A stretch of DNA of 53,845 bases, the filler included, from Jimgerdemannia flammicorona (lineage: Eukaryota), in NCBI GenBank assembly GCA_003990765.1. It is 2 parts of 2 records of this genome, joined end to end, with 100 filler letters (N's around TTAATTAATTAA, not from the genome) between each part and the next. Parts side by side here need not be neighbours in the genome. Positions count along the whole stretch, not along the records: positions 1 to 26,875 come from RBNJ01000686.1; positions 26,976 to 53,845 come from RBNJ01000687.1. One strand, 5' to 3'. This document shows, in pieces, positions 6,297-37,900 of the stretch. Positions within the stretch are counted from its first letter, which is position 1; each line of letters starts with the position of its first letter. The notes below the pieces were generated by a model. The model searched no databases, was not told where the DNA came from, and worked only from the letters and a program-made list of their open reading frames with translations. The position numbers and the translations under genes were made by a program.

Positions 6297-6800
6297 ATGA
6301 ATCAGAGAATTGACCAGTATCTTCAGACTCTTATCCTCAGTTCTCTGCAGTCTCTGTCTGTTCCCTTACCCACATTCCACCAATCCCAAAGAACTCCCAG
6401 TAGACAAATTCAAAAGTATCTTGAAAACCTTACCATAGCCCAGAGATTGCTACAGATTCATCAGTTATAAGCCTACTTCTTCATTAGACAAGTCCTTTAA
6501 GATCCCATATATATAAGGAGGTCTGTATGTTTAAATTGCTGAAATGATATAGCTGCTGAAAGAATCTATGTACTCTACAAATATAATGAGAGAGTACTTA
6601 CTCAAGTATAGTTTCATCTCAATGATATCCAAAAGATAAATGAAGTTATCTTTCAAAATATACTACAATAAGTAGAGTTCTTATTCTCTGAGCTAGAGCA
6701 ATAAGACTCAGATCTTAAATGGAGTGACTCTGACTCTAATATAGATGATAGTATAAGTATTGATGCAGAAGATACTTATACCTACTGAGATGATGACTAA
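6297..6800 (+). pseudogene. Accessory ORF of unknown function between integrase and 3' LTR (element A)
   Basis: ATG at 6297; MNQRIDQYLQ..SVPLPTF..IHQL*AYFFIRQVL*D..AAERIYVLYKYN, acidic tail; homologous by eye to the ORFs at 20880 and 35442-36287. Confidence 0.7.
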
Positions 6801-6840
6801 AGAATAGTCTAAGGATAGATCATTCTTTAGTAGAGACTGA

Positions 6841-7114
6841 TGTAATATATAATATACATAAATATTAGATACTTAAATGATGTAACCCTCATATACTATA
6901 GTTACTCTCATAGTTACCTAGTTGCTGCAGAAACCATATAAATAGCACCAGATACTCAGATTGAGACAACTGAACCTTGAAGGTACTGTACCTTGTAGGT
7001 ACTGTACCTTGAAGATACTATACTCTGAGAGAATAGTAAAAGTTATATACTATATAAAATATCCCAGAGATAAGAGTGAATAAACCTCAGTCTGAAATTG
7101 AATATAAAGCAACA
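6841..7114 (+). repeat. 3' LTR of element A (partner not in window)
   Basis: Starts TGTAAT after purine-rich AGTAGAGACTGA; TATAAATA ~6938, AATAAA ~7079; ends ..GCAACA. Confidence 0.6.
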
Positions 7115-7299
7115 GCCTCTCTTTCCACTCTGGTCTACTTTCTAATACAAAGCTTGAAGGTTTGCTATCAAAGTTCAAGTGAAGAACTTCACTATCTTTG
7201 AAGAGAAACCTACTGCTTAAGGAATAAGCTACCTTTTGAGAAGTCTGCTATATTTTGGTCTGCTTGCTAGATAAGCCAGAAGAATCTAAGAACCTATCT

Positions 7300-7800
7300 C
7301 TTATCTCAAAGTCAGTCTTCTGATATAACTTCATACAAATGAAGCCAGTTTTAATATAACTTTGGTCAAGAACTCACTATTCCCAGAGAGTTCAATTCTT
7401 GTCACTAAGCCAGTCTATCTGATATAACTTTGCAGTGGAGCTAGTCTATAATGTAACTCTGTACAAATGAAGTCAGTCTTTGATATAACTTATTAAGAAT
7501 TTACAATTTATATCATCTGAGTTATTTTCCAGAAGCCTACCAATTCAGAAAGAATCTGTATTATTCACCATTTTTGAGTTATCTGAGTTATCCAAGTTAT
7601 TGAGTTATCTGCCAACCAAATTACCCAAGTTATTAAGTTATCTAATATTCCCAGTGAGTCATTGATTCAAGAGAATCTATGTCAAACTAAGTTATCTACC
7701 ATTTTCAAAAAATCTATATAAGGAATATTATCAGGATTATCATACCAAGATTATTATACAAAAATCAGATACTTTTGGAGATTATCATACTATACAGAGA
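7300..7800. repeat. Degenerate short tandem repeats of unknown origin
   Basis: Recurrent ~30 bp unit AGCCAGTC..TGATATAACTT (7305-7495), ~9 bp GAGTTATCT units (7575-7645), GATTATCATAC units (7735-7790). Confidence 0.6.
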
Positions 7801-8149
7801 TTGCTACCACTTAAGAAGAAAACTGCTAAATTACTAGATAGTTATATATACTACATCATATATATAAATTGCTGCTATATCCAGAGAACCATTCCAATAA
7901 GAAAATTGATCATTGTATCCAGATTAACTATTATACCACTAAATACTAAGAATACCAGGAATTTTAGAATATTTTGTCACTTTTTAACAAAGTAACTGAA
8001 AGCTCAAGCCAAACTATACTAATCTCCAATCTTGTAATTTGCCTCTATTGAGCTGGGTATGTTATACTATGAATATTACTTTATCAGTATAATATTGAAT
8101 ATATATATAGTTATTCACTTCACAGTATATATAAAGTCATTGTCAAAAA

Positions 8150-10980
8150 GATATTTATTGATTTTTCTATTCTGTAAATGAACTACTTATTTCATATTAT
8201 ATAATCCTTTATATAGTTTATATATAAGATTATCATTTTGTTTATATTCTTATAGCTGATAAATATATAGCTTTGTATCTATATCATTATTGAGAAAAGT
8301 CATCTTTATATCTATCTGATGGATTTCTAGATTATATAAAGCACTGATCACAAGAAGTATTCTTAGTAAAGTAAGCTTAAATATTAACAAAAATATCTCA
8401 TCATAGTTAATACTATAATCTTGTAAATAACTCTTAGTAACAAAATGAACTTCATACTATTCTATACTTCTATCATTTTTGTATTTGATTTTATAGACTC
8501 AATGTGATTCTATGGCTTATTGATTACTTAGAAGAAGTACTAAATCTCATATATTATTCTCAATAAGTAAATTATACTTTATATCTATAGCTTACTTCTA
8601 TTTCTTATTGCCAGGAGAAGTTATTGCTTTGTTATATATATATATTTAACTTATCAGAAGTTATAATAAATATATATTCATATGTCTCAGTATAGCTCAT
8701 ATAGTCTTTATATTGAAATATCTTTAGTATATTCCAATAACTCTCTAAATTAGAATAAGTCTTATTTCTGGACTTATACTATGGCTTTTCTTACCCTTGA
8801 TGGACCTTTTGTTATTGTTATTATCATCAGTCTTGTTATTTTTAATCTTTATTATCTTTGGCTCAGATAACTCTGGCTTAAATATATATATATAGTAGTT
8901 GAAAATAATTTTGCTTTATTAGAGAGGTTAGTATTGAATATTACACTTATTGAGATATTGAAGTTGAGATTCTGACAGATATTTACATAGGGTTTCTGAT
9001 TTTCTTTTTTTATTAAATTATATATTATATAAGATTACTATATAATATTTATATAGATCTTAAAGTTGGTACTATATGTCTTGTCAGAATATATATATTA
9101 TATCTGAATATATATAGATACATTATATCTGACTTTATTCTACTCTATAACTCTTCAGAAGTTAGATTATTATCTCTGAAATACTTATTATTATTGTTAG
9201 ATTTTTTACTTAATACTCAAGATATACATTAGTTGTATATATATACTATTATATTAATGGCTTCAGTCTAATAAGAATATGATAATCTAGTCATATTGAT
9301 CATCATTTATACTATTTTTACAGCTATATAGTTAAATTACTCAGTTATACTATTTTGCTATAATATATATAGAACTGTTATATACTGTATTTTCTCAGAT
9401 ACTGTTTGAATATACTATTGATATATATATTTACATCTATTATTTGAATATATAGTATATATTCTATACTCTATTTTATTCTCCATAATTGCTTTAAACT
9501 CTTTAAAATAAATATAATGAAATATCTCTTCTCTCTATTGAAGTAGTATGTATCAGACTATATATATTCATATTGATTAAATTGAGTATGCTGGATATGT
9601 ATTTCATCTACTTCTCAAAATAAATACTGAGATGCTTTGTTTGCTATTAGTGCTCTGAATGAGCTGATCCAGATTAGATTCAAATTCCATCTAGATCAAC
9701 TCAGATGGGCATCTGAATCAATTTGAATCAACCATTGTTTTGATTTTCAAATTAAATAATTAAATGTTTATATCAATAACTTAATGAATAATTATCCAAT
9801 TTTGATAATCTTGATGTTATTTGAAAGTCCTTAATAAAGTCTTTCTAATGATATCAAGAATATTGAAATTATATTATATATTGCTCAGCTATCAAGGAAA
9901 ACATCTGACTTACCAATTTTGGAAATTATTCAACTTACTGATTTTGAAAATTTCTTCAAAAGAATGTTTTCTTTAATAGCTTGGCAACATATGATCTAGT
10001 TTTAATATTCTTAATATTATTAGAAAGGCCCTATTAAGGGCTTTCAAATGACATCAAGATCATCAAAATTGGATGATTATTCATCAAGTTATTATAATTA
10101 TCTAATTTGGAAATTAAAACAATAGTTGATTCAAATCAATCCAGATGGGATTCAAATCTCATCCAAGTTGATCTGGATAGGATTTAATCTGAATCCAATC
10201 TGAAACTATCTAGATTAAATTAACTTATTTAGAGCACTATTTGCTATATAATCCTTATAGAAGTTATTATCAAGATATATTATTAATAATTCTCATATAG
10301 ATCTATTTCTAATCATTCTTTTTAAGCTCAATTTTTCTATATATTTTAAGTATTAATATTATATTTTAGATATATTAGACATAGTTATCACATATATAGA
10401 GGTTTTTATACTACTTGATATATTATTGATTATATAAAGATTGCCTCATTTTGACACTATTATAATCTTCTTGTCATTCTTCAAAATATATACTATTGTT
10501 CTCATTAGATATATATATTTTTCTTTATTACTATAGGTCATCATTTTGTTGATTAAAAAGAGATTCTTTCTTATCTTTAGAGTATATAATATATCCTAGA
10601 AAGTACTAGTAGACTCTATGATATTTCTATAGAGATATATACTGATATTTCCTCTTTCTTGAGTATATATAACATTGTTATTATCTAATTTGATTAACAC
10701 TAGATGCTTGAAGAACTTATATATAGAGAACTATTCTTAGTAAGCTATTATATATTATATAGTATCTAAATCCATAAGTCATATATCATTATCATTGGCT
10801 ATATTAGTATATACTTCATTTATATTATTACTTTTACTTTTCACTAACTTGAAAGTATATAACTTAGATATAGCTATATATAGATGATATTTTCTCCAAA
10901 TACTTAGCATATATTATTTATATATAGAATACTATATACCACTTCATTTTCTTATTTTATAACCAATATGTATTATTTGT
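8150..10980 (-). mobile_element. Highly degenerate Ty1/copia relic (PR-IN-start of RT)
   Basis: Minus strand FKEFKAIMENK and *QNSITE*FN (QQNGxAERxN) integrase motifs; homologous to the copia at 39415-41850 (8480-8580 vs 39820-39905). Confidence 0.8.
9648..10239. mobile_element. hAT-type fold-back MITE inserted in copia integrase
   Basis: Termini TAGTGCTCT..AGAGCACTA; exact 8-bp TSD TTTGCTAT at 9640-9647 and 10240-10247; ~260 bp imperfect inverted arms. Confidence 0.9.
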
Positions 10981-10982
10981 AT

Positions 10983-14200: not shown

Positions 14201-14288
14201 GTGGAAAAGGAAGATAGTAGAATAGAGGAAGACTCTTCAGAGTTGGGGAGAATATTATATTTTTCTTATCAGATAGGTGTTAATTCTT
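11240..14288 (+). mobile_element. Degenerate L1/Tx1-like LINE (ORF1 end, APE endonuclease, RT)
   Basis: EGDFNIV, WSDH, NWRLIILL, QEKVYD-like, VLQGDLLS, FADN; colinear with the LINE at ~49870-52655. Confidence 0.9.
11707..11970. mobile_element. hAT-type MITE inserted in the LINE endonuclease region
   Basis: TIRs TAGTGCTTAGAATGAATT / AATTCATTTAGAAGTACTA; 8-bp TSD ACTGTGAG vs ACTATAAG (two G/A transitions); absent from other LINE copies (~50340, ~45590). Confidence 0.82.
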
Positions 14289-14294
14289 ATCTCT

Positions 14295-14505: not shown

Positions 14506-14530
14506 TTTAAGGAATAACATTCTTCTACTC

Positions 14531-17150: not shown

Positions 17151-17450
17151 GTTAATTTTTAACTTATTGTTTCTCTTAAATCTAATAAATTTTAATAAAA
17201 CTAGTACTAAATAAAAAGTAGACTTATACTACATCTGGTATACTAAAGTAAATGAAGTAAAAATTATTTTTTTACAAAAGAATATACTTGTGGCTTAGCT
17301 CTCTCTAAATAGTTCAAGTAAAAGACTTATTTTTTAACTTCTTATTCATATTTTATTTTCTTATTTATATTTTAATCTCTTATTTATATTTTGATTTTTT
17401 GTCATAGTTTAGGTTATATATAAAGTTTATATCTATAAAAAATAGTATGA

Positions 17451-20127: not shown

Positions 20128-20879
20128 ATAGTTAAGTTAGTAATAAATTCTTATTAATAATACTTTATAATTTATAAATTTTTAATAAATATATCTAAAA
20201 TTATTTTTTATTTATTTATATAATATAGTCTAACTTATATAATAACTCTAGTAATTAATATCAGTTTTCTTTATTAAAAAAATATATATATATTTTAAGA
20301 GATTAGAGAGTTCTAAGAAATAAATAACTATTTTAAATAATAGATATCTAGAGTTTAAGTTAAAAAATAAAAAAACTTTATTAATAAATTAAGTTTAAGA
20401 CTAAGAATTCAGAAATATAATAAGAATAAAGTTTAGAAATAATTTTTAATATAAATATTTAAAATTTAATTAAAATAATTATTTTCTAAATTAAAAATAA
20501 GATAAATAATTTTTATAATATATATATTAAAAAGGAACTTTATCTAAAAAACTACTATCAAATTGGGAGGGACTGGTAGGGGACTTTATATATAAGCGCA
20601 CAACCTCCAAGCCACTGAAATTACATGTCACCCTCTGAACAAGCCACTGAAATCACATGCGACCTCTGAACAAATCTGGAAATCACCTGCTTGATCACAA
20701 AGCTGAGTCAAACTGAAGTCACAGCACACAAAGCTGAGTCAATACAAAGTCACAGAACACAAGATTTATACAAACGGAATCTTACCAATCAGGACCAAAT
20801 GCATATATACCGAGCACTAAGATACATCAAATCAAGAGAACCAAAACAAACAACAACCACAACTTCCAAACACACAAAC

Positions 20880-23692
20880 ATGACCACCGAGATCTATACC
20901 CACATCCGCGCTGACATTTGGAATGCCATTGTCAACCAAGCTACACCCCCTCTGCCCCTTATGAATATCCATAGCCTAGCACCCCTCTACTTCGTGGAAG
21001 CCCAATGGAATGCTCTGAACATGCTTAGCGAGGCCCACCAAATCAGACAAATTTCAAGCTACTACTAGATTGGCTGCCTCCTAGAAGACATGGTCAAATA
21101 CCACCATGATACAGACATTACCCAGATGTCTCAACACTAGAAGCTCATCGCCCGCAAACATTGAGAACTCTTCTATGAGTACAGTACCATTATTCCCCGC
21201 CTCCGAGTTACTACCAGCGAAATGGTTGCTACTCTGTCCTATGGCCAAATCGATAACATGATATAAGAACTCAACCACAAGTACCTTAAGTATGTCGAAA
21301 CCACAGACAGAACCTTTCCACACCCCAATGATCAAATCCTGCAAATGCCCCAAGTTGGATACGCCATGAAGGACATCTATTTTTTTTTTTTTTTTTTTTT
21401 TTATAGTCACTTGGACTCCACCTTTATTACCAGTCTATGAATAAATATACATCATTTCGACCCACTATCCAATCCCCACAGGGGGGCCCCTCCCTACTTC
21501 CTCATGAATGAAAATCACCCTTTCACCAACTACCCCCACTCTCCCCCCACTTTGCCTACAGATTTTCTCCACCAAGTGGTGCCTCCGACCACCCCGCATC
21601 CCCCAACCCAGCCACCAGCCTGTTAAGGTATCTTCCATAAGCCTATGCCATCACAGCAGCTGGTTCCAAGCTCTGCCTCCTCCCATCCTCAAAAACAAAT
21701 AGTCAATGACTGGCCAGCCCCACCCAAATTGCCAAAGCCCAACCTAAAGTAAGCCACTCCTTCCCTATCCCCCCTACCAATCTAACCCTCAAGTCCTCCC
21801 ATTGCCTCCGTACTTCATCACTCCTACCCCGTACCCCTAAGCAATCCCCAATTGTCTGCCAAAATTCCCCCAACACCTCACACTCTCCTAGCCAATGTTC
21901 TGGCATCTGTATATAACCCCCCTCCTGCCCTACATTATGGCACTCCTCACAGTTGAAGCAACCCCCTACAACCAGGTGCCCTGAGCGAAAATTGAGTATA
22001 ACATTTCTCCGCAGCATGTGCCACCAGACCACCCAGTACTTTGGTGGCAGCCATGCTCTCACTGCAGTGCTCCAGGTCCAAATACTCTGCCAGTTCCACT
22101 CTTTGCCAATTCCAACTCCTTGCCAACCACTAGGTCACAGATCCTGGCCTGGTCCCCTTTGGCATTCCATTCTATCACCAATGTCGAACTCAACTAAAGG
22201 AGCACCACCTAGTAGTATGTGGTCCCATCTCTACATCGCCGGGTCCCAATCCTCCTCACCTTCATTCCCCTGCCAACAAATACCAATGCAGTGTACTCCT
22301 TCTGCAATTCCCCACCAAAATCCTTTATATCATAGTTGGGCAGTGTTCTGAAGCCCAACCAAGGAGAGGAGATCACCAGTTGAGCCCCTTGGCGATGCCC
22401 ACCTCTCCCATAACTTCTGTAACAGAGGAACCCATCCACCTCCTCTCAACTCCACCGCCCTCTTCAGCCACCATGCTCTCAAGCAGTGTAACCATTTTGG
22501 GAAGTCAACCAGCCCAAGACCACCTCTTGCCACTAGTAGGGACAAGGTCTCCCAACTAATCTGACTCCGCCTGCCAGCCCAAATCTATCCCTTCGCTGAC
22601 TTCATCAATCTCTTCACTACTCAGGCTGGGAAGTCCAGATGATATGCCAGGTACCACAACTTTGGCAGCCAGTAGACATTCAAAATCAAGACCCACCCTG
22701 CCAGAGAAAAATGTCTTCCCCCCCAACTCCGCAGAGTCTCCTCCCAGATTCCAATCCTCTGCTCCCACCAAAGCTTGGGCAGAACTGACCCATAGACTGA
22801 CAAGTAGATACCCAAGTACTGCACTGCTTCACTGGTGGGGACAATTGTTCCTATAACCTCCCCTCCCACCAGGCTGTTACCAAGCACCATCGTCTCACAC
22901 TTATGCCAATTTAGCTTAGCTCCAGAATGCTCCTCATACCACTCCATAGTCCTCTTGAGCTCCTCAACATCAGCAATCGAACCCAAGCCCACCACCATGT
23001 CATCAGCAAAGGCCCCAACCTTCCATCCTATGCCAAAGACAGAGAGCCCCACTATCCTCTGCCTAATCCAGTCCATAAGCATGAAGGACATCTACGATAT
23101 AATCCACTTTGATGAAGACAAAGCAGAAGATAACGATCCCTCTGATGCCGACATGACCTCTAGCCAAGGATCTCTGCCAACCCTGATCACTCTACCAACC
23201 TTGCCAATGAACTTACAACAGTTCATAACTACATATGAGACTTATTGGGACAATGACCACTGGCATGAATACCAATCTGCATTCACCCCCGATTACTTCA
23301 ACTACAATGAAGAGACTGGAGAACACAACCTGTACCTTCAGACAACCCTCAAGATCGAATCAACCACTCCACCACCCAAGTATGAGCGACATGAACCACA
23401 GCCACCAGCATACTATAACCCCACAACTCACAGTACCATAACCTATAGAAGGTATGCAGACAGTGAATCCAATGAAAGTGAAGACAATACACCTATCCTT
23501 CGCCCACCAACACCTTATCCAGCATACAAGACAGACGATGCTATCCTGTGGGACAGAGACAAAGTTCCAATGTACTATTACCTCAGCAAACAAGGAGAAG
23601 TAATCCGCGAACCATTATTTCTAGATGACTACTTCATCAGAGATGATGCAATCAATGGTGATGTCATCAAAGACTATCCAGACAGCACCTAA
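20880..23692 (+). pseudogene. ~365-codon accessory ORF of element B, split by a LINE insertion
   Basis: MTTEIYTH..TPPLPL..IRQISSYY*IGCLLED..LIARKH*ELFYEY..IPRL..YAMKDIY; the frame continues DIIHFDED.. to 23692 once the LINE and one TSD copy are removed. Confidence 0.8.
21380..23079 (-). mobile_element. 5'-truncated L1/Tx1-like LINE (RT C-half, zinc finger, poly(A))
   Basis: Exact 15-bp TSD CATGAAGGACATCTA at 21365-21379 and 23080-23094; poly(T) 21380-21402; GAFADDM, YLGI, CFNCEEC..EHWLGEC; same family as 48190-53845. Confidence 0.96.
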
Positions 23693-24116
23693 ACCCATAA
23701 ATAGCCTAACAGTCATAGTATAGTTAGATTAGCCTTATACAATGTAACTGTGAACTGACTCAGCAGTCAGACGATCTCTTGACATGTCAGATCACACTTG
23801 TACTATATGACTGCATTCCGACTCAGCAAAGCACTTAGTGCTATATCCATATTCAGCATAGTCCAGATAGCCCCTCACTAGTATAAATATTTCCTCCCCC
23901 AGACCTCAGAATCTCAGACTTGAATACACAAGAACATTCCTGAATACTTCCCCACAAATATCCCTTCACACAAATACTCCTAGTATAGCAATATCATGAA
24001 TAGCGAATAAACCTATTTAATAACCCATAAACTACTCTTAAGTAAATCTGCTCTCTGTTAGGTCCCACTCCTAACCCTATCACGAAATTTCCTAATTGGG
24101 TATTGTCTGTAGCAAT

Positions 24117-26310
24117 ATGCCAATTCAACTAAGCTGGTCTTAGTTTCTTGAACTTCCTGAAATATGGAAAATCCTGAATATCCAGAACTAGTCCGAAAAA
24201 GGACTTTGGTTGAGACGTCAATCTGATCTTGAAATCAATAAGTATAGAGGACGTACTCCATACGAAATTGATCTTGACCATAAGAAAACGGTCTTCCAGA
24301 ATATCCAGAACCTCCAGAAAACCCTTCCAGAACTACGTAATGGTTACCTTAAAAAGCAACCCTCTTACAACTTGATAGCAGCGGTTCACAATCCAATTCC
24401 ACTTCAAGATGCTTCCTCACCCTGCTACAAACCCTTCCGAGAATTCCTACAAGTTGGTATAAAGCCCAACCTCTGAACTGGAATTTATCCTGAACTATCT
24501 GACAATCTGGAGAGAATTGAACCTGACGTACAAGGACAATTTGACCTCCACACCTGCAACAAGTGGGATAAACTTCATTCAAAGAAAGAAGTACTCAGGT
24601 TAAACCAGCAAATAGGGGAAACCCTATTCACCGAACTCCTTGCACTACACCCAGCAAGTCAAGATGAAGAAGGTCTTATTGAAGCCTTCTTTACTCTTCT
24701 CAACAAGAGTTTTGTCAGCTCCACAAATCCGAGTGACCTAGGACAACCAGCAGCAGTCTTTCTAGCCTTAGTTCCTCACAAAGCCCAAGCCTCTGTAGCC
24801 AAGTGGCTCAACTCTACCAACTTTCACCACACCAGGACCAAGACTGCCTTATACTACTGATTCCAGAACAGCAAGGCCCATCATATCCTTAAAGAAGAAG
24901 CAAGAGAAACCCTTCATCAACTACCTGACCCCGAACCTGAAGCAGGCCCTGCTACAGCCCTACCTGAATCTGAAACTAATACTGAACCTGAACTTGACTT
25001 TGAATTAAGTCTGTCTGAAATCAGATATACAACTGATTCTGTCTACTTTGATGCCGAGCAAACCCAATTACACGGGGACCAAACTGAAGAAGAGGAGGAG
25101 TATCTCAGTGAATTCGATCCCAGATATACCACCGAAGGAGAAGCACCTCCATCAGGACAGAATACACCTACTCAGCAACAAACAGCTACCTATCAAGCCC
25201 TTACTCCAGATCCACAACTACTACTCCAGCAACTTACACAGACCCAAAGAACCCCATCACACTCTGCACCAGTACCTCAAGTAGTACCAGTAACACCACT
25301 ACCAGCAGTCTAACCACCTCCAGTAAACAACATGGCAAACCAACAGATTCTAGATCTCACAGCCCAGGTAGCCATAATGGCAGCAACCATTACTGCCTTA
25401 GCTGAACAGACCCAACCTACCAAAAATCTGAGCCTACCTATCTTCAATGGTACTGCACAAGAAGTCCAAAGCTTCATTAGTGTAGTTGACACCAACTTTG
25501 AAGCCAATTAATGGACTAATGAGCGAGTTGCTGACTGCATTCTGATAAACAATCAAGACCACACTCTGGAACAACTCTTTGCTACCACTACAGCCTATGT
25601 CCGCCGAGTTGTTATGACCTGCCGAAGAATGGTGGCGAACCCTTCCTGAAAAACCCCTCATATGAGATACCTGACCTGCAGTAGTTGCTCAGAATGTAGC
25701 AAACAATGCCCCAGGATATGGAGCCCATCCTGCAGCCCCTGGACTCAAACAACTCATGATTGCCCAATACTGCAGTGAAACCATGATCGCTGAATCTCGA
25801 GTAAAACTCTGCAACCTCAAATTTGATATACATGGCAAAGAAGAATTTGAAACCTTCTGTACAAAACTTGAGTCACTCCTGAACACTGTTGGCCTAGGAT
25901 ACATTGCCAATGATGAAGCATGAAATGGTACAAGAGTAGACCATTTATTCGATGCTCTGCCTGAATGGCTTACTAGAAAAATCTGAGAACAAGGCCGCCC
26001 AGTTGGTTGTGATCACCAACAATGGTGCCTGGCAAGAATCAAGACTATGGTCAAGTGAATCCTAACAGCTGGACCAATTCTGCCCCAAAGGCAATTCAAT
26101 AACAAGAAAAAGACTTGGACCAAGAAAGAAGAACTCAAGCATGAAGCATCTCAAGCTCCCTCCATATCCACCTCTTGGACACCCAGAAATCCTGAACCCA
26201 CCCAGCCCAGTACCTTCAAGAAACTTACCGAAGGCGAAAGGAATGAACTTCGAAGAAGCGGAGCATACTTCTATTGCCGAAAGACAGGACACATGGCCAG
26301 TGCCTGCCCT
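24117..26310 (+). pseudogene. gag: gag of element B with ~405-codon N-terminal extension
   Basis: ATG 24117 is in frame with MANQQIL at 25332; knuckle AYFYCRKTGHMASACP at ~26263-26310; scattered stops. Confidence 0.75.
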
Positions 26311-26391
26311 AACCGAAAACCCTGAACAGCAACACGAGCAACTGTTACCACTCTGCACCACCTCAACAACCTGACCACCAGAACACTAGAC

Positions 26392-26793
26392 TTTGTCAAG
26401 TTAAGACAAACTGCTAAGGCCCCAACCAAAGGAAGTCAAAAAGCAGCCGGATATGACCTGTATGCAGCTGAAGAAGCTACAGTCTCCAACCGAGAAGTCA
26501 AACAAGTCTACACAGGAATCAGTATCCAAATCTCTGAAGGACATGTTGGAAGAATATGCTGTCGCAGCAGCCTAGCACTGAAAGGACTCTCAGTAGAAGG
26601 AGGAGTCATTGACGAGGATTACACAGGCGAAATTATTGTCCTCATCTGAAACTACAGTTGGACACTCTTCAAGATCCCTATTGGTTTCTGCAATGCCCAG
26701 ATCATATTCAAAAAAATCGAGTCAACTCTGACAGTCAAGGAAGTCTCTGAACTACTGCCCACCATCCGAGGATCCAAAGGATTTGGCTCATCA
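26392..26793 (+). pseudogene. dut: dUTPase fused in frame directly after the gag zinc knuckle (element B)
   Basis: AAGYDLYA, RSSLA, EGGVIDEDYTGEI, NAQ, RGSKGFGSS; one TGA inside. Confidence 0.96.
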
Positions 26794-26875: not shown

Positions 26876-26975
26876 NNNNNNNNNNNNNNNNNNNNNNNNN
26901 NNNNNNNNNNNNNNNNNNNTTAATTAATTAANNNNNNNNNNNNNNNNNNNNNNNNNNNNNNNNNNNNNNNNNNNN
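26876..26975. other. Artificial scaffold gap / six-frame-stop linker
   Basis: 44 N + TTAATTAATTAA (26920-26931) + 44 N = 100 nt. Confidence 0.95.
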
Positions 26976-27859
26976 GACCTGAGGGAATTCCTGGCAGAAG
27001 AGGTTTCTTATTTTATATTCTTACTATATCCAGAGATATTCAGTAGTGATAGTGATCCTTGTTTCTATTTTATGGCAGTAGAGGATAAAGTAGTAAAGGT
27101 CACCAGTACTCAGGTTGAGGCTAGGAGTCCTTCTGGTGCAGGTCCTCATAGCTCTCCTGATGTCTTAAAATATTTTTTCTTAAACTGAGAAGTCCTGGTA
27201 GTTTCTGGACCTTGAGGTTTGGTGAGTGGTAGACATTTTATTTATAGTGAGTCTTTGAACTATTTTAGGATTTTGTAAGTCTTGTTTAAGTTGCTACTAC
27301 TGTGGTTTTTTAGTTCTTCTTTTATATTTCTTGAGATGTCTATCTTATAGTTATGATGACTCATAGTTGGTCATCATTGCTCATCTTATAGCCTAAGTGA
27401 GTCATACTATATGATCATCTTATACTCTAATCTGGTAACTTGAAAGGAAAGACTGTCTTCTGTAATGATATTATCATTCTGTTACATCTTTCTCCTGAAT
27501 AAGAATCTTCTCTTGAATATCCTTATTCATTGATCTAGTTTGAAAAATTTGCTAATTCCATAACCTCTGACAGAGGGTCAAAAAGTGGTGTTTATAGACT
27601 GGTATCTTTCTTATATATTTTGGTATAATGGTGAAGAGTCACTTTCTTTATATAGAGCAAGGGCCTGATTCTGATCTTAACTAATCAGTTGATGGTTCAA
27701 ACTTCTCTGACTTCAAAAGTCTTACAAATAAGTAGTTGCTGATACTATATCCCTTAGAGAATAGTTCAGACAGATTGCCTACTAGTCATGAGACATACTG
27801 TTATAATTTACAGACTAGAATCTCATGGGTGGTCATCATATTTTACTTCTCTTATATAG

Positions 27860-30320
27860 ATTCATAGTACTTCTTAAGTCTGTTCCTATATATTGTAGTA
27901 GATAGTATGGTCTCTGAGAGTTTTCTAAGCCAGAAGGTAGTTCTTTTAATATCTTACATATAGAAAGGTTCTTCCCATTTAGGCTCTAGTTTTTATAACT
28001 ATGTATGAGGTTTCTACCATATTTCAATATAGTAGAATCTTTTCTCCAATTTGAATGAGTTTTAGGGTCTTGTGATTATTTTTTACATTCTTTCTTATTA
28101 ACACTTATAACTTGATAATATAATCTTCTATCTTCTTTCTGATTTGGCATAGTCTCTAGATTTTTGAGTCAATCTATCACTAAGTTAGATCTAGATTTGT
28201 AGCTGAGGTTCCATTAGAATCTTCTTCTCCAAAGAGTAGTTCTTTTGGAGTAAAGTGTATACTCTGTAACTATATATCTCATAAGATAGAGAGGGTAATT
28301 GAGAGGTAGTTATTCCAATTCTCATATATATCTGAGATCTTGGTCAGAATATTCTTGAGGGTCTTATTGGTTCTTTCTATCTGTCTATTTCCTTAAGAGT
28401 GATATGCAGTAGTCTTGATATGCTGAATCTTGTATTTCTGATATATTATTTTATAGAATCTGTTGATAAATTCTGTACTGTAGTTTGTGGTAATTTGTCT
28501 TGATATCTTATAGCAGTAGATGATTTCTTGGTATAAGAAGTTAGTAATAAAGAGAGCATTGGCTTCTTATAGTACTCCTGCTTCTATCTATTTGATAAAG
28601 AGATCTACAATAACTATAATATAGTAGTTTCTTAATAGAGTTACTGGTAGTAGTCTAATAATATCTATTGTGATGTGGTGGAAGGGGATAGATTTGATTC
28701 TTGATAACCCAGATACTTGATCTTGCTGATCTTGTTTCTGTTTTTGATACTTGTCACACTCTTTGATAAATTGAAATAGATCTTCTTCTATCTTAGATTA
28801 CTATATGATTCTTCTTGTCTTGTTATATATATTGGTTCTTCCTAAATATCCTTGTTTGTATACTTTCTTCATTATTTGATACTTCTTATATTTAGATATA
28901 ACAAGCTTTTCTCTTTTTCTAAGTATGATGTTATCTAGTTCAAATTATTTCCAAGTCTGATTAATAATAGTAATAGTCCAGGGTTCAAGGTAGTTGGACA
29001 TCTTCTACTGTCCAAGATAGCTGATTAATCTATAGTATAGCTCCTTATTTATGTTGAATAGTCTTGATGAGGTTATTTCAGAGTATCCTTGAAAGTATAT
29101 CAGTATTGGCATTGGTTTTTTCTGAGTAGTATTTGATAGTACAGTCATACTCCTGCAGTCTATAGATCTATCTAGTATATATTCCTTTGGGATTTAGAGT
29201 ATGGAATAGCTAGATAAGAGTAGAATGATTTGTTTGAATAGTGTAGTATTTTCCAGCTAGGTAGTAGTAGAACTTGTCTACTATCCAAACTACTGCTAAG
29301 CATTCAAGCTTACATAACTTGTAGTTCTGTTCTACTTTGTATGTAAGTATCTCAGCTTACATAAGAGATGACATATTCATATCTATCTTTCTTCTGAGCT
29401 AGTACTGTTCTAAGTTCTATAACACTTACATCTATCTGCAGAATGAACTCTAGGTTCCAATCTGGTCTTCTGAGGATGGGTGCTTGGGTCAACCTGATCT
29501 TGAGTTTATTGAAGGTTTCTTGACATTCCTTGGTCCATTCAAATTTGATCTTCTTCTTCAGTAGCTTGTAGATAGATACTGCAATATTAGAGTATTCTTT
29601 GATGGATCCTCTGTAGTAAGAGGCTAGTCCAAAGAAGGTATAGACTTCTGTAGTTGTTCTAAGTCTTAGATAGGCTATGACAGCCTCAATCTTCATAGAG
29701 TTCATATAAATTTCAGTCTGGTTGATGATGTGTCCTAGGTAGGCAATTTTCTAAGCTGTAAACTTGTACTTTTTTGAGCTTGATGTAGAAGCCATGCTCC
29801 TTGAGATTCTTGAGAGCTAGCTGTATATGATTGATATATTTCTGTACAGTATTGCTAAAGATGATCATATCATCAATATAGACAAAGAGTCATTTCCTGA
29901 TTTCATTACTGAAAACTCTATTCATTATTTGCTGAAAACTTATTAGGGCATTGTACATTCCAAATAATATTTATAGATAAACATAGATGGTGTTAGATGT
30001 GATGAAGGCTAATTTCTCACTGGTATCTTGAGTGAGACAATCTGATAGAAGTCTGAGAATTGATCCAAGATGGTATAGTATTTGGCTTTACTTTTAAGAG
30101 TGATAAGAATTTTTTTAATATTTGGTAAGGACTATCTATCCTTTTTGGTGATTATATTGAGCTTCCTGTAATCAATACAGAGTCTTGGGGCAAACTCTCC
30201 AGGCTTGTTTCCTTTGGGGCAAGGATAATGGGTGAAGCCCAGAGACTAATAGCTTGCTTGATAATATTAGCTTCTTCTATTTTTTTGAGTTCTGCTTATA
30301 GCTATTCTCTATAGGCAGGT
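27860..30320 (-). pseudogene. pol: RT-RNase H-integrase of element C
   Basis: ORF 29352-29705 FFGLASYYR..LTQAPIL..FILQIDVS; CDKYQK; IDIIRLL; KLEPKWEEPF. Confidence 0.9.
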
Positions 30321-30556
30321 AGTATGGGTCTGACTTTCTGATAGATGAGCTTGATATTACTAGTATCAACTTTATGATAGTACTTGGGTTCTTGGTTTTG
30401 AATATCTCTGAAGTCTATAGCAAGTACTCCTTCATTCTGATGCAGAATCTTGAGAAGTTGTAAAGTTTTCTCCAATGGTATATGTATGCTTATTCTGGTT
30501 CTTGTCTTTCCTGTGCTCAAGTTTGGTAATCTTGGTAACAGTATAGGCTCCTCTTC

Positions 30557-30950
30557 CAGTAGATCTAAAGTCTTGTTCTTCTCTTTTAGTCTTGATGAGT
30601 TTGATGGCTTCAGTGATCTTAGGCTTCTTAACTTCATAGATCAGCATCTGGCCAATTCTATCATACTTCTTGACTTCAAATAGAGTAGTGGGATTGTGAT
30701 TCCTAACTATAAGAAAGATCTCACCAGTATAATTGAGGTCAATAACTCCTCCTTCAACTGAGATTTCACTCTTGATCAGACTGCTCCTAGTTTTGATAAT
30801 TCTGATATAGTTCTTTAATAACTTGACTCCAATTCAAGTACCAAATAGAGTGGTAGTCTGTGGTTCAAGGATATCATCTTAGATACTGACAAGGTCTATT
30901 CCTATTCTTATATTCTGAGATCTTAGCTTCAGGGTAAAACTTCTTGATCT
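30557..30950 (-). pseudogene. dut: dUTPase domain of element C, between PR and RT
   Basis: TRSSL, EGGVIDLNYTGEIFLIVRN, DRIGQML, REEQDFRSTG (RG.QGFGSTG). Confidence 0.92.
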
Positions 30951-33900
30951 TGAGAGTAATGTCTAGTTCTTATTTCTCCTCATTATTACTATCAGCTTGA
31001 AGCTCTGGAGGCTGGTCATCTTCTTCAGCTTTCTTTTTTACTTCAACAGCTTCTTACTTATACCTTTGTTGATGGATTTTTCTGACTTTACTGATATAGG
31101 ACCAGCAGTTATTTAGGTATTTGGAGCAGTATATTCTAGCACCATGGGGACATCTTTCTTGAGGAGTATAGCTATTGATGATCTTGTTATATCACTGCTC
31201 ATCTGTGAGCTTAGTTGTCTTACTCTTATTCTTATACACCAAGTACATAAAGACTTCTGTGTCCTCTTTATCTCATTCCTCCATGTCTGATAGTACTCCT
31301 TTGTGGATATTGATAGAGACTCATATCTTTCTTCCTCTATAGTTGATCTATATCTTCTAGTCATTGAGGTCAATAATAGCCTTGGTCTTGTGAAGCCATT
31401 GATTATTAATGAGGATGTCATTGTTAGTGGTATTTGTAATAATCATATCTACTGAGATGATAGCTCTTTCAATCTTGATGGAGATTTCTTAGATCTTGTC
31501 TAGAGAGGTAGCTTGTATACTATTTGCTATAACATAGACCATTTTGGTAGATTCTTCAATGTTCCAGCCTAGGCAGTCAATTGTCTTCTTACTTATGAGG
31601 TATCCTTTAGTACTGGGATCAATGATAGCATCAAAGATACAATCTTCAATCTGATATTAGATATAGGCTGAGGTCTTGTACTAATCTTCAAATTCTTTAT
31701 CTGAGTCTTCTTGTTCATCTTTTTGTATATTGTGAGCTTCTATGATCTTATACTCTTGGTTCTTGACAGTAGTTGTAAGTCCTACCCTCAACTGCTGTCT
31801 GAAGGTGGGAACTTCTGCTAGTTGTCCAAAAGTAGTATTAACCTTCTGTTCCTTAAGATTCTTGTAGATATTATACTAATGGATCTTGATCTTATATAGC
31901 TTCTGTTCTTTCTTGCTTTTACTTTCTTCTGAGACTGGAGTAGTACCTTTAATAATTTTGTGGGCAGCTTCATCTAACTCTATGTCTTGATTAATATTCT
32001 CAGATTGGGTCTTACTTTGAATAATAATAATTGAGGTCTTTTTTAGTCTTTCAACTGACTTGCTATTATCCTTCTTATCATAGGGCTTGGACTGGATTTT
32101 GGTATCTTTAGTAATAAGGTAGAATTCAGGCTTCTTATAGTATTCTTCATCATTAGTATCACTAATCTCCTCAATGACTACTACATTGGTTTGTTCTCTG
32201 GTTCTGGTAATATTACTTAGTTGAGCTCTATATCTTATTTTGGTCATGCAATTCTTTGCATAGTGGCCTTCTTCTCTATATTTGAAGCATATAATGGTGT
32301 ATTCCTCTATAGTTGCTGTAAACTTCTATACTGGTCTCCTGTTGACACTTTATACTTCTCTAATAACATCACTAAGATATACAGTTATCTTGACAAACTG
32401 CTGGGTGAGTTTCTCTACTGGATCAGCTTTGGTCATCTTGGAGGTAGGTGGAGATAGTTGTCTATTGAGAGCTGTGATGAGTATGATATTGGTTAGCTTT
32501 GGTAGCTCTATCTTGATGCCAGTTATCCTTTTCATTGAATATTTAGCAGGGTATCTGGTAGTTCAATATCTCTGTACAAAGACCATTTTCTGGTCAAATG
32601 TCAGAGCAACTGGAGTAGACTAGATTGCTAGAGCAATTTCATAGTAGACTCCTTTTAGAAAGATTGAATCAGCTATCTATTCCTTAAGGACATCATCATA
32701 GCTAGCCAAGATAATCTAGTGGTAGATTTGAGTATAGAATAAGTTGAGGTCTTTATTGAGTCCTTGGCAGATAGTATTAAGTTATTCTTAGAGAACTTGC
32801 TTGATCTCTTCAGTATAGTATATAGTTCTGAGGAAGTTCTTTATGTTGGTAAGTTTGACTGCACTATTATCAGCAATGGTGGTTATATTGAACTTATCTC
32901 TGATAGATCCTCTGAGGTTGATAGATAGAAGGGCTAGTTGTGCTTCAATACTAAGAGCTCATATGGTGGCAAATTGTTCAAAGTCTTCAATGAAAGTCAA
33001 GATTGACTCTTCAGTAATAAATCTATAGAATGTGGAGAGACTTGTTTCTATCTTGTCTTAAATTCTTATAGGAGTAACTCTTATAGTTAGAGTAGTTGTT
33101 GTGGTGATTATTTATTATTCAGCTTGAAAGTGAGTGATCCTAATGATATTATCAGTCAATGGGTACCAAGTTGTCACATAGTAGGTACTAAGTTCTCCAA
33201 GTATATCAGATTCTCTTCAAGGTATATCTCTTAGATCAACTATAAGTTTTTATAAGCAAGTTCTGTTGGAGTACCTTCTCAAGATCTTATAGTCCTTAAA
33301 CTTCTTATCTTTAAACTATTCTGTTATCTCTTAAATTTACTTATATAGAATTGAGTAGAGAACTGAAACTTTTGCACTCTTAAGTAGTTGAGTACTTGAA
33401 TACTTGAGTGTTTTAATACTGACTTTATTTTAAAGAAATGAGAGGGGTATTTATACAAAATATAATTCAATAGTTGCTAAGATATAAAGCTAAATATAAA
33501 ATCTAATAATTAAATAAGATATTTGAATATAGAAAACTTCAGATTATAAGTACAAATTTGAGTATATATATAATTGGTTATACAAAATCAGAATTTTGAA
33601 TAATTTCTAACTGTTATATAAGATCAGAATACCAGAACATTCAAGTGTTCAAACAAATAGTTATATAAATAAATTAGAGTAAAATATTCAAAATTCTAGA
33701 GACTTTGTCTTTATTACTGTTATCAAGACTAGAGATTAGAAATAGAATGTCTTTGAAGAAAATAAGGTCAGCAAACATTTCTGTTTTATTTATTTTATAT
33801 GTGTCAATTAGTAGGAAAATATCATTGCTAGTGATATTATTATATTAAATAGCAGCAGGAAGAAGATCAGAGGCTCTTTAATCTATGATATTTTCTTCTA

Positions 33901-34752
33901 CAAAGTAGGAGACAAAGGTGGGATCTTAAGGGAATCTGATCTGGATACTGGGGCCTTAGAATAATAAGATTAATTCTTACAGAAATTGATCTAGATTGTC
34001 CTTGAGAATGAGATTCTAGAACTCTTCTATCTCATTACTTTTAAGAGTAATGGTGAATTAGATTTCTGTGGCCACTATGGCCTCTAGTATATTCATATAG
34101 TAGGCTGACAATTTCTTGAAGTCTGAGACTTTGGTATACTCCAAGTTAGAGATTGACTAAGGTATATGCCTAAAGACCTGATGGATCTTTTTGATTACTC
34201 TTAATTCATATACATCTATAAAAGTGGTATCTTGTATCTTTAGAGACTGGTCTGAGGGAATTTCCAGTAGAGAAGATTTCTTATTTTGTATTTCTGCCAC
34301 ATCCAGAGATATTCAGTAGTAGTAGTGATTCTTATCTCTATTTTACAGTAGTAGAGGGTATAGTGGTAAGGGTCACCAGTACTCAAGTTAAAGCTAGGAA
34401 TCCTTCTAGTGCAGGTCCTTATAGCTCTATTGATATCTTGGAATATCCTTTCTTGGACTGAGAAGTCTTGGTAGTTTCTGGACCTTGCAGTTTGATGAGC
34501 AGTAGATATTTTATTTATAGTGAGTCTTTTGAACTATTTTGGGATTTTGTGAGTCTTGTTTGCATTACTGCTGCTGTAGTTTCTTAGTTCTTCTTTTATA
34601 TTTCTTGAGATTTGTAATAATCATAACTCATGGTTTATTATCATTACTCATCTTGTAGTCTGGGTGAGTTATGCTATATGATCTTCTTATACTCTAATCT
34701 AGTAGTTTATAAGGTTCTGTGATGATGTTACTATTCTGAGATTACTATCACA

Positions 34753-34954
34753 ATATATAGCATATTTGTATCTATTATGTATAATTGATATTCCAAGAAG
34801 ATAGGATATATTATCCATATCTGTCATCTTGAATTTCTGATATAGTATTACCTTTACATCATTAATCTTACTTGCTATCTCAACCAGAATAATATCATCA
34901 ATTCAAATTCCTAGATATATCATTTCTAAGAATATATACAAGATATAAATATAT
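34753..34954 (-). pseudogene. Ty1/copia RT core fragment stranded between two gypsy insertions
   Basis: Minus strand MIYLGI*IDDIILV..VKVILYQKFKMTDMD..YLLGI; continues the copia relic beyond 39414. Confidence 0.85.
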
Positions 34955-37900
34955 TGTCACATAGTAGTTACTGAGTCCTTCAAATATGTCATATTCTCTC
35001 CAAGATGTATCTCTTAGACTAACCTCAAGTTTATTATAAGTAAGTTCTTATTGGAGTGCCTTCCCAAGATCTTATAGTTCTCAAACTTCTTATCTTTAAA
35101 CTGTCTTGTTATTTCTTAGATTGCTTGCATGGAATTGAGAGTAAGTAAACTGGAACTAACTTTATTTCAAAGGAAATAAGAGGGATATTTATACAAAATA
35201 TGATTTAATAGTTGCTAAGTTATAAAGCTAAATATAAATTCCAATAACCAAATAAAATACTGGAACATAGAAAACTACAGTTGTCTGTACAAGTAGTTGC
35301 ACAAGTTTAAGATATCAGTAGAATTTCAGTAGTACAGAAAAAGGATACCAGAAGAATTTTGAGTTACACAAAATCAGAATACTAGAAGAATAACAGTTAT
35401 ACAGGAAAAGGATTCTGTTAGAATCTGATGTTACTAAGAACTTAGAGCAGAAAGTTCAGGATCATGGAGGCTTTATTTTTATCACTATCAAGGCCAGAGG
35501 TTAGAGATAGGATGTCTTCAAAGGAGATGAGGTCTACAAATATTTTGTCTATTTTGTATACTTCATGTATCTCACATATATCATATAGGATGACATCATT
35601 GCTAATGATATTATCACATTTGGTGGCAGAGAGAACAAGGAGGTCTGGGGCTCTCCAATCTATAATATTCTCTTCTACAAAATAAGAAACAAATATAGGG
35701 TCTTAGAGAGGTCTAACCTGGATGCTGGGGCCTTGGAATACTGAGATCAATTGTTGTAGGAATTGATCTGGGTTGTCCTGGAGGATGGGATACCAGAAGT
35801 CTTCTACTTTATCACTATTGAGGGTAATAGTGGACTGAGCCTCTGTAGCCACCATGACCTCCAGTGTATTAGTGTGACAAGCTGATAGTTCCTTGAAGTC
35901 TGAGATCCTAGTATACTCTAAGTTGGGGATTGACCATAGTATATACCAGAAGATCTGATAAATCTTCTTTACTATCCTTATTTTATGTATATCTATAGAG
36001 GTAGCATCTTGAATCTCCTGGGGACTGATCTGAGGGAACTCCTGACAGAGGAGGTTTCTTATTTTATACTCTTGCTACATCCAGAGGCATTTTGTAGCAA
36101 TAGTGATTCTTGTTTCTATTTCACAGCAGTAGAGAATATAATAATAGAGGTCACTAGTACTCAGGTTGATACTAGGAGTTCTTCTTGTGTGGGTCCCCAT
36201 GGCTCTTCTGATGTCTTGAAATATCCTATCCTGAACTAAGGGGCCTTGGTAGTTCCTGGACCTTGAGGTTTGGTAAGCAGTAGGTATTTTGTTTATAGTA
36301 AGTCTTTAGAACTATTTCTGTGAGCTTTGTTTGGATTGCTGCTACTGTGGTTTCTTGATTCTTCTTTTATATTTCTTGAGATGTCTGTCTTATAGTTACA
36401 ATGACTCATAGTTGATCATCATTACTCATCTTGTAGCCTAGATGAGTTATGCTATATAATCCTCTTATACTCTGATCTGGTGACTTGTGAGGAAAGGCTG
36501 TCTCCTGTGCTGATATCATTATTCTGAGATCACTATTACATCTTCTTTCTGAATAAAGATCTTCTTGAACATCCTTATTCATTGGTCCAGTTCTGAAAAA
36601 TTTACTGATCCTATAACCTCTGACAGGGGGTTGAAAAGTGGTATTTATAAACTAATGTCTTCCCTATGTATTTTAGCATAATGGTGAAGGGTTACTCCCT
36701 TTATATAGAGCAAGGGCCTGATTCTGATCTTGACCAATCAGTTGATGGTTCAAACTCCTCTGGCTTCGAAAGTCTCATAGATGAGTAGTTGCTGGTACCA
36801 TATCTCTTAGAGAATGATCCAGACAGATTGCCTACTGATTATGGGACATACTGTTATGATTCACAAACTAGAATCTTATGAGTGATCATTATGTTTTACT
36901 TTTCTTATATAGGTTTATGGTACTTCTTAAGTCTGTTCCTGTATACTATAGTAGACAGTATAGTTATTGAGAGTTTTCTAAGCCAGAAGGTAGTTCCCTT
37001 GATATCTTGCATGTAGAAGGGTCCTTCTCATTTGGGCTCCAGTTTTTGTGACAATGAGGCTTCTACCATATTCCAATATAGTAGGACCTTTTCTCTGATT
37101 TAGATGGATTCTAGGGTCTTGTGATTCTTCTCTGCATTCTTTCTTATCAGTACTTATGACTTGATGATGTAATCTTTAGCCTTCTTTCTGATTTGGTATA
37201 GTCTCTGGATTTCTGAGTCAACCTATCTCCATGTTAGGTCTAGATTTGTAGCTGAGGTTCCATCAGAATCTTTTTCTCCAAAGAGCAGTTCTCTTGGAGT
37301 AAAGTATATACTCTGTGACTATATATCTCATAGGACAGAGAGGACTGTTGAGAGATAGTTATCCCAATTATTATATATATCTGAGATCTATTCTTGAGGA
37401 TCTTATTGGTCCTTTCTATCTGTCTATTTCCTTAAGAGTGGTATACAGTGATCTTGATATACTGAATCTTGTATTTCTGATATATTATCTTGTAGAATCT
37501 ATTCACAAATTCTGTGCTGCAGTCTGTGGTGATTTGTCTTGGTATCTTAAGGCAGCAGATGATTTCTCAGTATAGAAAGTTGGCTATAGAGAGAGCATTG
37601 GCTTCTTATAATGCTCCTGCTTCTATCCATTTGGTAAAGAGGTCTATAATAACTATAATATAGCAGTGTCACTAATAGTGGTTCAATAATATCTATTGTA
37701 ATGTAGTGGAAGGGGATAGGCTCAATTCTTGATAACCCAGGTATCTGGTCTTACTGATCTTGTTTCTTTTTTTGGTACTTGTCACACTCTTTGAAAAATT
37801 GGTACAGGTCTTTGGTCACTATCTAGTTCTTCTTATTTTGTCATATGTATTGGTTCCTCCTAGGTGTCCTTGTTCATGTACTTCCTTCATTACTTGATAC

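Follow-up and report, generated by a model that had tools for sequence, protein, structure and literature searches.

Decayed copies of a candidate accessory gene family in three divergent dUTPase-bearing Ty3/gypsy lineages of Jimgerdemannia flammicorona

Analysis of a 53,845-nt stretch of the Jimgerdemannia flammicorona genome (assembly GCA_003990765.1, including 88 N), composed of parts of the records RBNJ01000686.1 and RBNJ01000687.1 and referred to here as the window, revealed an unannotated open reading frame (ORF) that recurs in long terminal repeat (LTR) retrotransposons of three families. The window is a transposon graveyard with 104 CpG dinucleotides in total. Self-comparison together with a Pfam scan located three gypsy-type elements with a dUTPase: A (plus strand), B (plus strand), and C with its relative D (minus strand). 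Searching with all family proteins by tblastn showed that the window holds six copies of the ORF, one in A (ORF-A), one in B (ORF-B), and four in the LTRs of C and D (ORF-C). We consider it likely that these are decayed copies of one accessory gene that was ancestral to the three gypsy lineages, with the position and role proposed below.

The PF00692 dUTPase matches of A, B, and C (E-values of 4e-15, 2.1e-22, and 1.9e-12, all above the 22-bit cut-off) are 31–44% identical, the RNase H domains of A and C are 38% identical, and no nucleotide similarity links the three elements in the window self-comparison. The description of three divergent dUTPase-gypsy families, given in an earlier note on this DNA, is therefore correct. 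The Pfam scan took in 150 of 371 stop-free pieces of at least 45 aa, most of whose scores fall under the gathering cut-off because the pieces are short.

ORF-A (6297..6800, plus strand) consists of 167 codons plus stop with 7 internal stops, the conserved core of ORF-B (part 1, 20880..21379, plus strand) carries 4 in-frame stops, and the best copy of ORF-C (35442..36287, minus strand, LTR positions 254-1096) consists of 281 codons plus stop with 2 internal stops. The frames lie where the earlier note had placed them. The ORF that it reported in the C/D LTRs is real, occurring in all four LTR copies, and 36287, given there as an end coordinate, is the start of the minus-strand ORF. Intact relatives were present in public protein sets for every group: 28 candidates yielded 4 for C, 45 yielded 2 for A, and 7 yielded 1 for B. 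The relatives share 57–86% identity overall with the window copies: the C relatives (174–271 aa) show 72% identity, P0005 and P0011 align to ORF-A at 58–59% identity, and the B relative shows 86% identity. A profile of all seven proteins, searched against 1.84 billion representatives, yielded 13 matches at E ≤ 1e-3 and 9 at E ≤ 1e-10; among the 13, the divergent proteins P0015, P0017, and P0018 match the shared core alone. The 10 cluster representatives that were looked up come solely from ENA and JGI/IMG, on contigs of 716–4848 nt; NCBI and UniRef contain records for none of them, and 'hypothetical protein' is the only name that any of them bears. When metagenome contigs (P0007 and A3) and viral contigs (A5 and A4) were scanned, no locus of the outside relatives was confirmed. 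No Pfam family, including Chromo, GDSL, and DEDDy, matched five intact proteins of the three groups at E ≤ 10, and none matched the window ORFs with X at the stops. With intact relatives and no Pfam match, the unannotated protein family postulated earlier is real.

Comparison of the window copies with their intact relatives revealed the direction of the decay. In the four comparisons, 36, 31, 13, and 55 differences can be accounted for by a single C>T or G>A change in the direction of the window copy, against 3, 4, 2, and 7 in the reverse direction, and C>T or G>A accounts for 16 of the 18 stops across them. Since the decay is directed toward the window copies, the transition-corrected residues read in the earlier note are sound. 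Judged from these sequences, the window copies are pseudogenised versions of genes that were once open.

Analysis of the three groups by sequence comparison indicated that ORF-A, ORF-B, and ORF-C are members of one family, though a distant one. When only the window copies were compared, the Smith-Waterman score was 48 for A-B (shuffles 29.5 ± 4.3, reached by 1 of 500), 39 for B-C (30.4 ± 5.0, reached by 38 of 500), and 30 for A-C (31.5 ± 5.3, reached by 304 of 500). BLASTP of the intact proteins gave E-values of 6e-4 for A-B, 0.28 for A-C, and 27 for B-C. Comparing profiles of the enlarged groups with hhalign, a check proposed in the earlier note, gave 3.9e-4 for B-C, 1.6e-3 for A-B, and 0.011 for A-C, with all three alignments collinear on the same motifs; the B-C alignment spans 117 columns, almost the full length of the B protein (128 aa). 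An iterative hidden Markov model (HMM) search was run against 4404 sequences, comprising 21 family proteins, 183 window ORF pieces of at least 60 aa, and 4200 composition-preserving shuffles made from the family proteins. Whether seeded with B, A, or C, it recovered all 21 family proteins, 7 window pieces, and none of the 4200 shuffles; the seven pieces are all copies of the ORF itself, and none of the remaining 176 window pieces was recovered. Starting from a single C protein, the first round drew in B at 2.6e-8 and the second drew in A at 8.1e-5. In a MAFFT alignment, all 15 chosen members align collinearly, and the N-terminal PLP motif noticed earlier as common to A and B is aligned as well. 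The shared two-part motif that had been read from the DNA is thus upheld by intact-relative profiles and iterative HMMs, and is weak on the decayed window copies alone. On these comparisons, the B-C link appears firm, while the link of A to B and C is weaker, yet recovered from all three directions.

Because an element inserts with two identical LTRs, the differences between its own LTRs serve as a neutral control for ORF-C. Between LTRs of the two elements (I and IV from C, II and III from D), the differences at codon positions 1/2/3 were 66/48/99 for I-II (p = 2.7e-6), 55/34/69 for I-III (p = 2.7e-4), and 17/8/24 for II-IV (p = 7.8e-3), compared with 31/26/33 within D (II vs III, p = 0.59). 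Likewise, the Nei-Gojobori ratio of nonsynonymous to synonymous substitution (dN/dS) was 0.19–0.25 when elements C and D were compared and 0.50 in the D control, in agreement with the ratio below 1 for which the earlier note had called. These substitution patterns point to purifying selection on ORF-C while the lineages were active.

C and D together span 26976-39421 on the minus strand, D being internally deleted, and they hold four LTR copies with TGT..ACA ends. ORF-C is present on the minus strand, wholly within the LTR, in all four: the 5' LTR of C (LTR I, 33173..34752) contains the copy 34509->33677; the 3' LTR of D (LTR II, 34954..36540, 1587 nt, TGT...ACA), with the polypurine tract AGAAAGAAGA directly before it, contains the best copy; the 5' LTR of D (LTR III, 38056..39421) contains the copy 39104->38547, which is without about the first 95 codons; and the 3' LTR of C (LTR IV, 26976..27481), cut by the N gap, retains the first 87 codons at 27236->26976. 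Polypurine tracts (AGAAAGAAGA / AGGAGAAAGA) precede both 3' LTRs, both 5' LTRs are followed by the primer-binding site (PBS) TGGTACCCATTGAC, and D is flanked by an ATATA(T) duplication. Between ORF-C and the end of the integrase lie ~650 nt, together with a polypurine tract and the LTR boundary. The motif TATAAAAG lies ~85 nt ahead of the ORF-C start codon and is identical in all four copies, while TATAAATA at ~1349 and AATAAA at ~1374 of the 1587-nt LTR (~250 and ~280 nt past the ORF-C stop) are found in all three covering copies. We infer that the latter pair represents the promoter and the poly(A) signal, which would place ORF-C in the U3 region of the LTR. As part of U3, ORF-C would be copied into both LTRs in each cycle and left behind in solo LTRs, and its expression might rely on a promoter within the LTR.

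In element A, pol stops at 6311-6313, and the ATG of ORF-A is located 17 nt ahead of this stop in a frame other than that of pol/integrase. Behind the ORF-A stop, TGTAAT at 6842, TATAAATA at ~6936, GAATAAACC at ~7079, and ...CACA at ~8124 suggest a probable 3' LTR (6842..8124, plus strand) that begins at 6842, with tentative boundaries read from sequence motifs in the single copy in the window. ORF-A might be expressed through a subgenomic RNA or by termination-coupled re-initiation at the pol stop, a process that occurs in some fungal viruses.

The frame of ORF-B starts at 20880, as the earlier note had it; an end after 128 codons did not hold, since the frame continues past the TAA at 21264 and a long interspersed nuclear element (LINE) to 23692. 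The TAA that ends the 128-codon frame is CAA in most related contigs of four runs, with T>C depths per run of 1892/2306, 81.3/83.3, 13.2/13.2, and 121.1/121.1. The LINE (21380..23080, minus strand) begins 113 nt beyond this TAA and is a 5'-truncated non-LTR insertion recognised by an RVT_1 match, a FADD motif, and homology to 52288-53653; its poly(A) tail appears as a 23-nt poly-T at 21380-21402. A perfect target duplication of 14 bp borders the LINE on either side (21366-21379 and 23081-23094), and its two copies are read in the same frame. The insertion inside ORF-B shows that the LINE is younger than the B element it splits. Part 2 of ORF-B (23095..23692, plus strand) is in frame with part 1 across the LINE, open to the stop, acidic, and Tyr/Pro-rich, and it carries two PPxY motifs; similarity between part 2 and the tails of other members was not detectable. 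Once the LINE is read across, the whole ORF-B comprises 365 codons plus stop.

The ORF-B stop is 50 nt upstream of a TGTAAC at 23742, where motifs and contig depth suggest the start of a short LTR of the B family (23742..24210, plus strand; boundaries tentative, read from a single copy). This putative LTR carries TATAAATA at 23884 and GAATAAACC at 24006, followed by PBS-like TGG stretches and then the B gag. Related DNA was found in 20 of 22 listed sequencing runs, which contain the stretch or part of it and are mostly soil metagenomes, with one root metagenome and one entry labelled 'organism A'; no RNA run is among those listed as containing it. In all four runs used for depth, the bins 23665-24297 are 3–6 fold deeper than the ORF and gag/pol parts, both of which have the same depth. 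Contig-summed depth is a crude measure, but the rise agrees with a short high-copy LTR having ORF-B upstream of it as internal sequence. Under this short-LTR interpretation, the B block would consist of one copy's tail, a shared LTR, and the next copy's head.

In all three lineages, the gene is located between pol and the TATA/AATAAA core of the LTR, at the 3' end of the genomic RNA. The layouts differ in that the LTR start of A and B, as deduced above, lies behind the gene, whereas in C/D the polypurine tract and the LTR start lie ahead of it. The earlier note had envisaged a gene that is mobile between slots and differently placed in each lineage. Of this, only the location of the C/D copies inside the LTR stands, since A and B are both just upstream of the LTR; B in particular does not represent a third kind of position. 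A shifted polypurine tract, that is, a move of the plus-strand primer site by ~1.1 kb, is enough to convert one layout to the other, so that movement of the gene itself is not needed. The divergence of the ORF exceeds that of pol (12–23% identity against ~35%), which fits an origin in one ancestral element better than exchange between lineages. Nucleotide similarity among the regions downstream of the ORFs does not exceed that of shuffles, and the TATAAATA ... GAATAAACC layout that A and B share is accordingly a likeness of motifs only. We propose that the accessory gene would already have been present in the common ancestor of three deeply diverged dUTPase-bearing Ty3/gypsy lineages, and that in C/D the polypurine tract and the LTR start would have come to lie upstream of it, making the gene part of U3.

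Structure prediction suggested that the family proteins probably consist of a conserved helical N-terminal core of ~125 residues and a lineage-specific acidic tail that is probably disordered. The AlphaFold model of B is all-helical, with a predicted local distance difference test score (pLDDT) of 68.8; the C model (pLDDT 53.1) has helices throughout the shared core. The helix order is the same in both models: a short helix, a loop, a ~37-residue helix, and several short helices. On this basis, the core would comprise a short helix, a Pro-rich loop, and a ~37-residue helix with a Y-x-I-G-x-x-L motif, and would continue with three or four short helices, the first bearing an A-[KR]-[KR]-I motif. 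Structural searches gave no clear relative. The best hits of a PDB profile search were ATP synthase b-subunit coiled coils at E ≥ 0.74; Foldseek of the middling-confidence B model against the PDB and a BFVD search with the low-confidence C model each returned 0 matches at E ≤ 0.001; and the best ESM Atlas score, 0.83, is under the lead level of 0.9. In the VIA wide search, the best Z was 5.3 for the B model, confined to the long helix, and 5.5 for the C model, where scattered TetR/AraC-type rows appear in the noise (TetR-type N-terminal domains in 7 of 50 listed rows, Z 3.7–5.1, under the noise level of ~8). A homodimer prediction for the B core gave no answer (score 0.00 against a mark of 0.32). 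The maximum 19-residue Kyte-Doolittle mean is 0.37–1.47 in seven proteins, none reaching 1.6, which supports the absence of a membrane anchor noted earlier, as judged by hydropathy and not by a dedicated signal-peptide predictor. Over their last 40 residues, P0005 (A), P0001 (C), and P0007 (a truncated B form) have net charges of -18, -10, and 0, respectively. The acidic tails attributed to all the ORFs are therefore present in A and C, and in B only when ORF-B is read across the LINE. Among the tail motifs, DLIxF and LNFLL occur in the C group and PPxY in B and P0010.

Viral adaptor and activator proteins usually pair a folded core with a disordered, acidic, motif-bearing tail. By analogy, a trans-acting regulatory adaptor is the most likely single role, an assignment we make tentatively; binding of nucleic acid or of an element component would fall to the core, and the tail would bring in host factors aiding transcription, RNA handling, or targeting. 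Alternative roles are RNA handling, integration targeting, and particle trafficking. A bolder and rather doubtful extension is that every C/D LTR, solo LTRs included, may be a self-contained gene with a TATA-like box (TATAAAAG), the 281-codon ORF, and its own poly(A) signal, encoding a trans-acting factor, made of a helical binding core and an acidic, motif-bearing tail, that would switch on or shield the LTRs of the family. If true, this would represent a 'complex retrotransposon', one whose transactivator or anti-silencing protein would parallel the regulators of complex retroviruses, in a host that mutates its repeats heavily.

Several results weigh against the overall account of one ancestral accessory gene, its position, and its role. 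For A, no single comparison was better than ~1e-3, the A-C BLASTP value being 0.28, and the hhalign profiles are thin, with an effective sequence number (Neff) of 1.2–1.9 (1.5–1.9 for the enlarged groups). The neutral control from C's own LTRs is less clean than that from D: over 83 codons, dN/dS is 0.34 and the differences are 14/14/21 (p = 0.29), close to the between-element values, so the selection signal rests mainly on the I-II and I-III comparisons. The ORF adjoins gypsy sequence in 6 of 6 copies, a count that holds for this window and bears only so far on whether the gene is always next to gypsy. With regard to the layout of B, one low-depth contig links 23999 to ~20591, which would suit a long, ORF-holding B LTR. 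With regard to function, the results are neutral on the regulator or anti-silencing role suggested in the earlier note: the Pfam, PDB, and BFVD searches gave no match, and the confidence of the two models is low to middling.

The resemblance of A, B, and C could also reflect chance or composition, the three being unrelated lineage-specific ORFs. Among the window copies alone, A-C does not rise above shuffles and B-C is marginal, and the BLASTP E-values of 27 (B-C) and 0.28 (A-C) would agree with this. Such a coincidence is nevertheless quite unlikely, because the three profile alignments run collinearly through the same pair of motifs, P0015, P0017, and P0018 bridge the groups, and the iterative HMM recruited 0 of 4200 shuffles and 0 of 176 other window pieces. 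If the family is accepted, the ORF might still be a passenger, a host gene fragment captured once and of no use to the element. LTR retrotransposons do capture foreign ORFs, as reported in a study of rotifer elements (PMC5408684), and no domain was matched or function found for the present proteins. A passenger would have had to be retained in three lineages with dUTPases just 31–44% identical; the third-position excess seen between elements is absent within D; and no host-gene relative appeared among the 1.84 billion representatives, all 13 matches being on short unnamed contigs (10 looked up). We regard this explanation as improbable.

An equally improbable possibility is that the ORF extends Pol at its C-terminus as an integrase tail, in the manner of a chromodomain, and is reached via frameshift or read-through. 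ORF-A begins 17 nt ahead of the pol stop, the frames of the A-group proteins P0006 and P0012 stay open over 21–41 codons ahead of the usual start, and the upstream part of P0012 matches the window at 6172-6285. Against this, 5 of the 6 A-group proteins, and also the window copy, keep the start methionine, at which 4 of the 6 begin; ORF-A is in a frame other than the integrase; the C/D ORF is parted from the integrase end by ~650 nt with the polypurine tract and LTR boundary; and none of the five intact proteins matches Chromo or any other Pfam family at E ≤ 10. The env gene of gypsy-like retroviruses sits after pol, and since the ORF holds the same slot and PPxY motifs occur in B and P0010, an env-like or movement protein for leaving the cell was considered as well. 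This is very improbable: the highest 19-residue Kyte-Doolittle mean, 1.47, is below the level of a membrane span, and the models are all-helical and soluble-looking, with no viral structure match. The reading as one ancestral accessory gene is the one we retain as likely.

Accessory genes in or overlapping U3 are familiar from retroviruses, as in sag of mouse mammary tumour virus, nef of human immunodeficiency virus, and bel/tas of foamy viruses. Like these genes, the C/D coding sequence is inside the LTR behind the polypurine tract and in both LTRs of the DNA form, and the gene is small, non-structural, lineage-specific, and upstream of the promoter core. In contrast to these systems, the host is no vertebrate and the element no retrovirus, and searches of the PDB and BFVD, the structural ones with models of low confidence, gave no sequence or fold match at E ≤ 0.001. 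Among retrotransposons, the bdelloid rotifer ORF3 types are reported to be common to unrelated dUTPase-bearing LTR lineages (PMC5408684), and Novikova et al. (2010) mention an 'add. ORF' of unknown function in fungal Ty3/gypsy elements (PMC2864245). As in both cases, the present family is an extra post-gag-pol gene across diverged dUTPase-bearing lineages. The rotifer ORF3s are reported to be env-like, GDSL, or DEDDy, whereas the present family has no Pfam match and no sequence or domain link to them; the 'add. ORF', comparable by its description only, might be related to the present family. CERV, of the Caenorhabditis elegans gypsy element Cer1, is described as a 517-aa protein from a five-exon spliced mRNA starting in gag, needed for Cer1's own RNA handling and without homologues outside a narrow host group (PMC10309623). 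By that description, it resembles the present proteins in being element-encoded, with its main ORF in the post-pol env slot; unlike the spliced, five-exon CERV, the ORFs described here are known from DNA sequence. In Botrytis cinerea, BcGypsy1 (Boty) carries an additional ORF, brtn, which may be antisense and might be related to the present family. Like the present ORFs, brtn is reported to be an extra ORF of unknown function in a fungal gypsy element that was skipped by genome annotation (10.1101/2021.04.13.439636). Word searches of open-access text found no description of the present family, which does not prove that none exists. Gypsy elements with extra ORFs are already known, and no match by sequence or domain was seen between the present family and the compared systems.

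Extra genes separate 'simple' retrotransposons from virus-like ones, and few of them have a known role. The present family was missed by annotation pipelines, yet kept across lineages at ~35% dUTPase identity, and its two layouts suggest that a gene can pass from the internal part of an element into the LTR by a move of the plus-strand primer site, whereby its copy number is doubled. If the protein is a regulator or counter-silencing factor, it would provide a handle on how elements overran a heavily repeat-mutating genome.

The internal part of element A (1..6313, plus strand) comprises gag, dUTPase (3096-3326), reverse transcriptase (RT, 4357-4503), RNase H (4977-5114), and the integrase core (5483-5704), as located by Pfam and frame reading, and thus retains the Ty3/gypsy order of RVT_1, RT_RNaseH, and rve; its 5' LTR lies beyond the window edge. 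The internal part of element C (27482..33172, minus strand) contains dUTPase (30833->30435), RT (RVT_1, 29889->29716), RNase H (29750->29213), and then integrase, while the internal remnant of D (36541..38055, minus strand) contains part of the integrase only (Integrase_H2C2, 37974->37822). In B, which is cut by the N gap at 26876-26975, the CCHC knuckle of gag is in the piece 26059-26322 and the dUTPase in 26326-26646. The dUTPase match of B begins ~35 codons past the end of the gag zinc-knuckle match, and that of A is ~2 kb into the element, behind an apparent protease (by eye); the place of dUTPase within Pol may differ between the A and B lineages. In Postia placenta elements, the placement of dUTPase is reported to vary (PMC2864245). 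Ahead of the recognisable B gag, the stretch 24192-25650 (plus strand) is nearly open over ~390 codons, interrupted by 3 stops. It is acidic in the middle and matched no Pfam family, and is either an unusually long gag N-terminus or another coding region. The B-like sequence starts at ~20591, which reads like a TGTAAG LTR start, with a purine-rich tract (20557-20577) just upstream. Direct repeats of ~430 nt (17430-17843 and 19690-20128, 82.5% identity) surround AT-rich tandem repeats (17966-19395) and abut the truncated upstream edge of the B block; the pair is possibly a small non-autonomous LTR element.

The CpG observed/expected ratio is 0.00–0.03 in the old elements and 0.2–0.57 in the younger B block. 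Differences between LTR copies (alignment 33093-39421) are 69–100% transitions overall and 92–99% within D. Private C>T changes were found at 68 of 234 CpA sites and 38 of 148 CpC sites, exceeding CpT (58 of 531), and the mutation process is thus not CpG deamination alone. The LINE in ORF-B belongs to a G-rich family with FADD-type RT, with related copies at 11335-14211 (plus strand), 43464-45947 (minus strand), and 50608-53653 (plus strand). A copia-type RT fragment (RVT_2, E = 5.7e-6) at 34702-34902 (minus strand) fills the 200 nt between C and D, suggesting that both gypsy copies lie in or beside an older copia element. One further repeat family occurs at 8132-10824 and 39442-41663 in the same orientation, starting 7–20 nt past the '...ACA' ends of element A (~8124) and of the reverse-oriented element D (39421); either the elements shared an integration spot in the repeat, or the repeat lands beside LTR ends.

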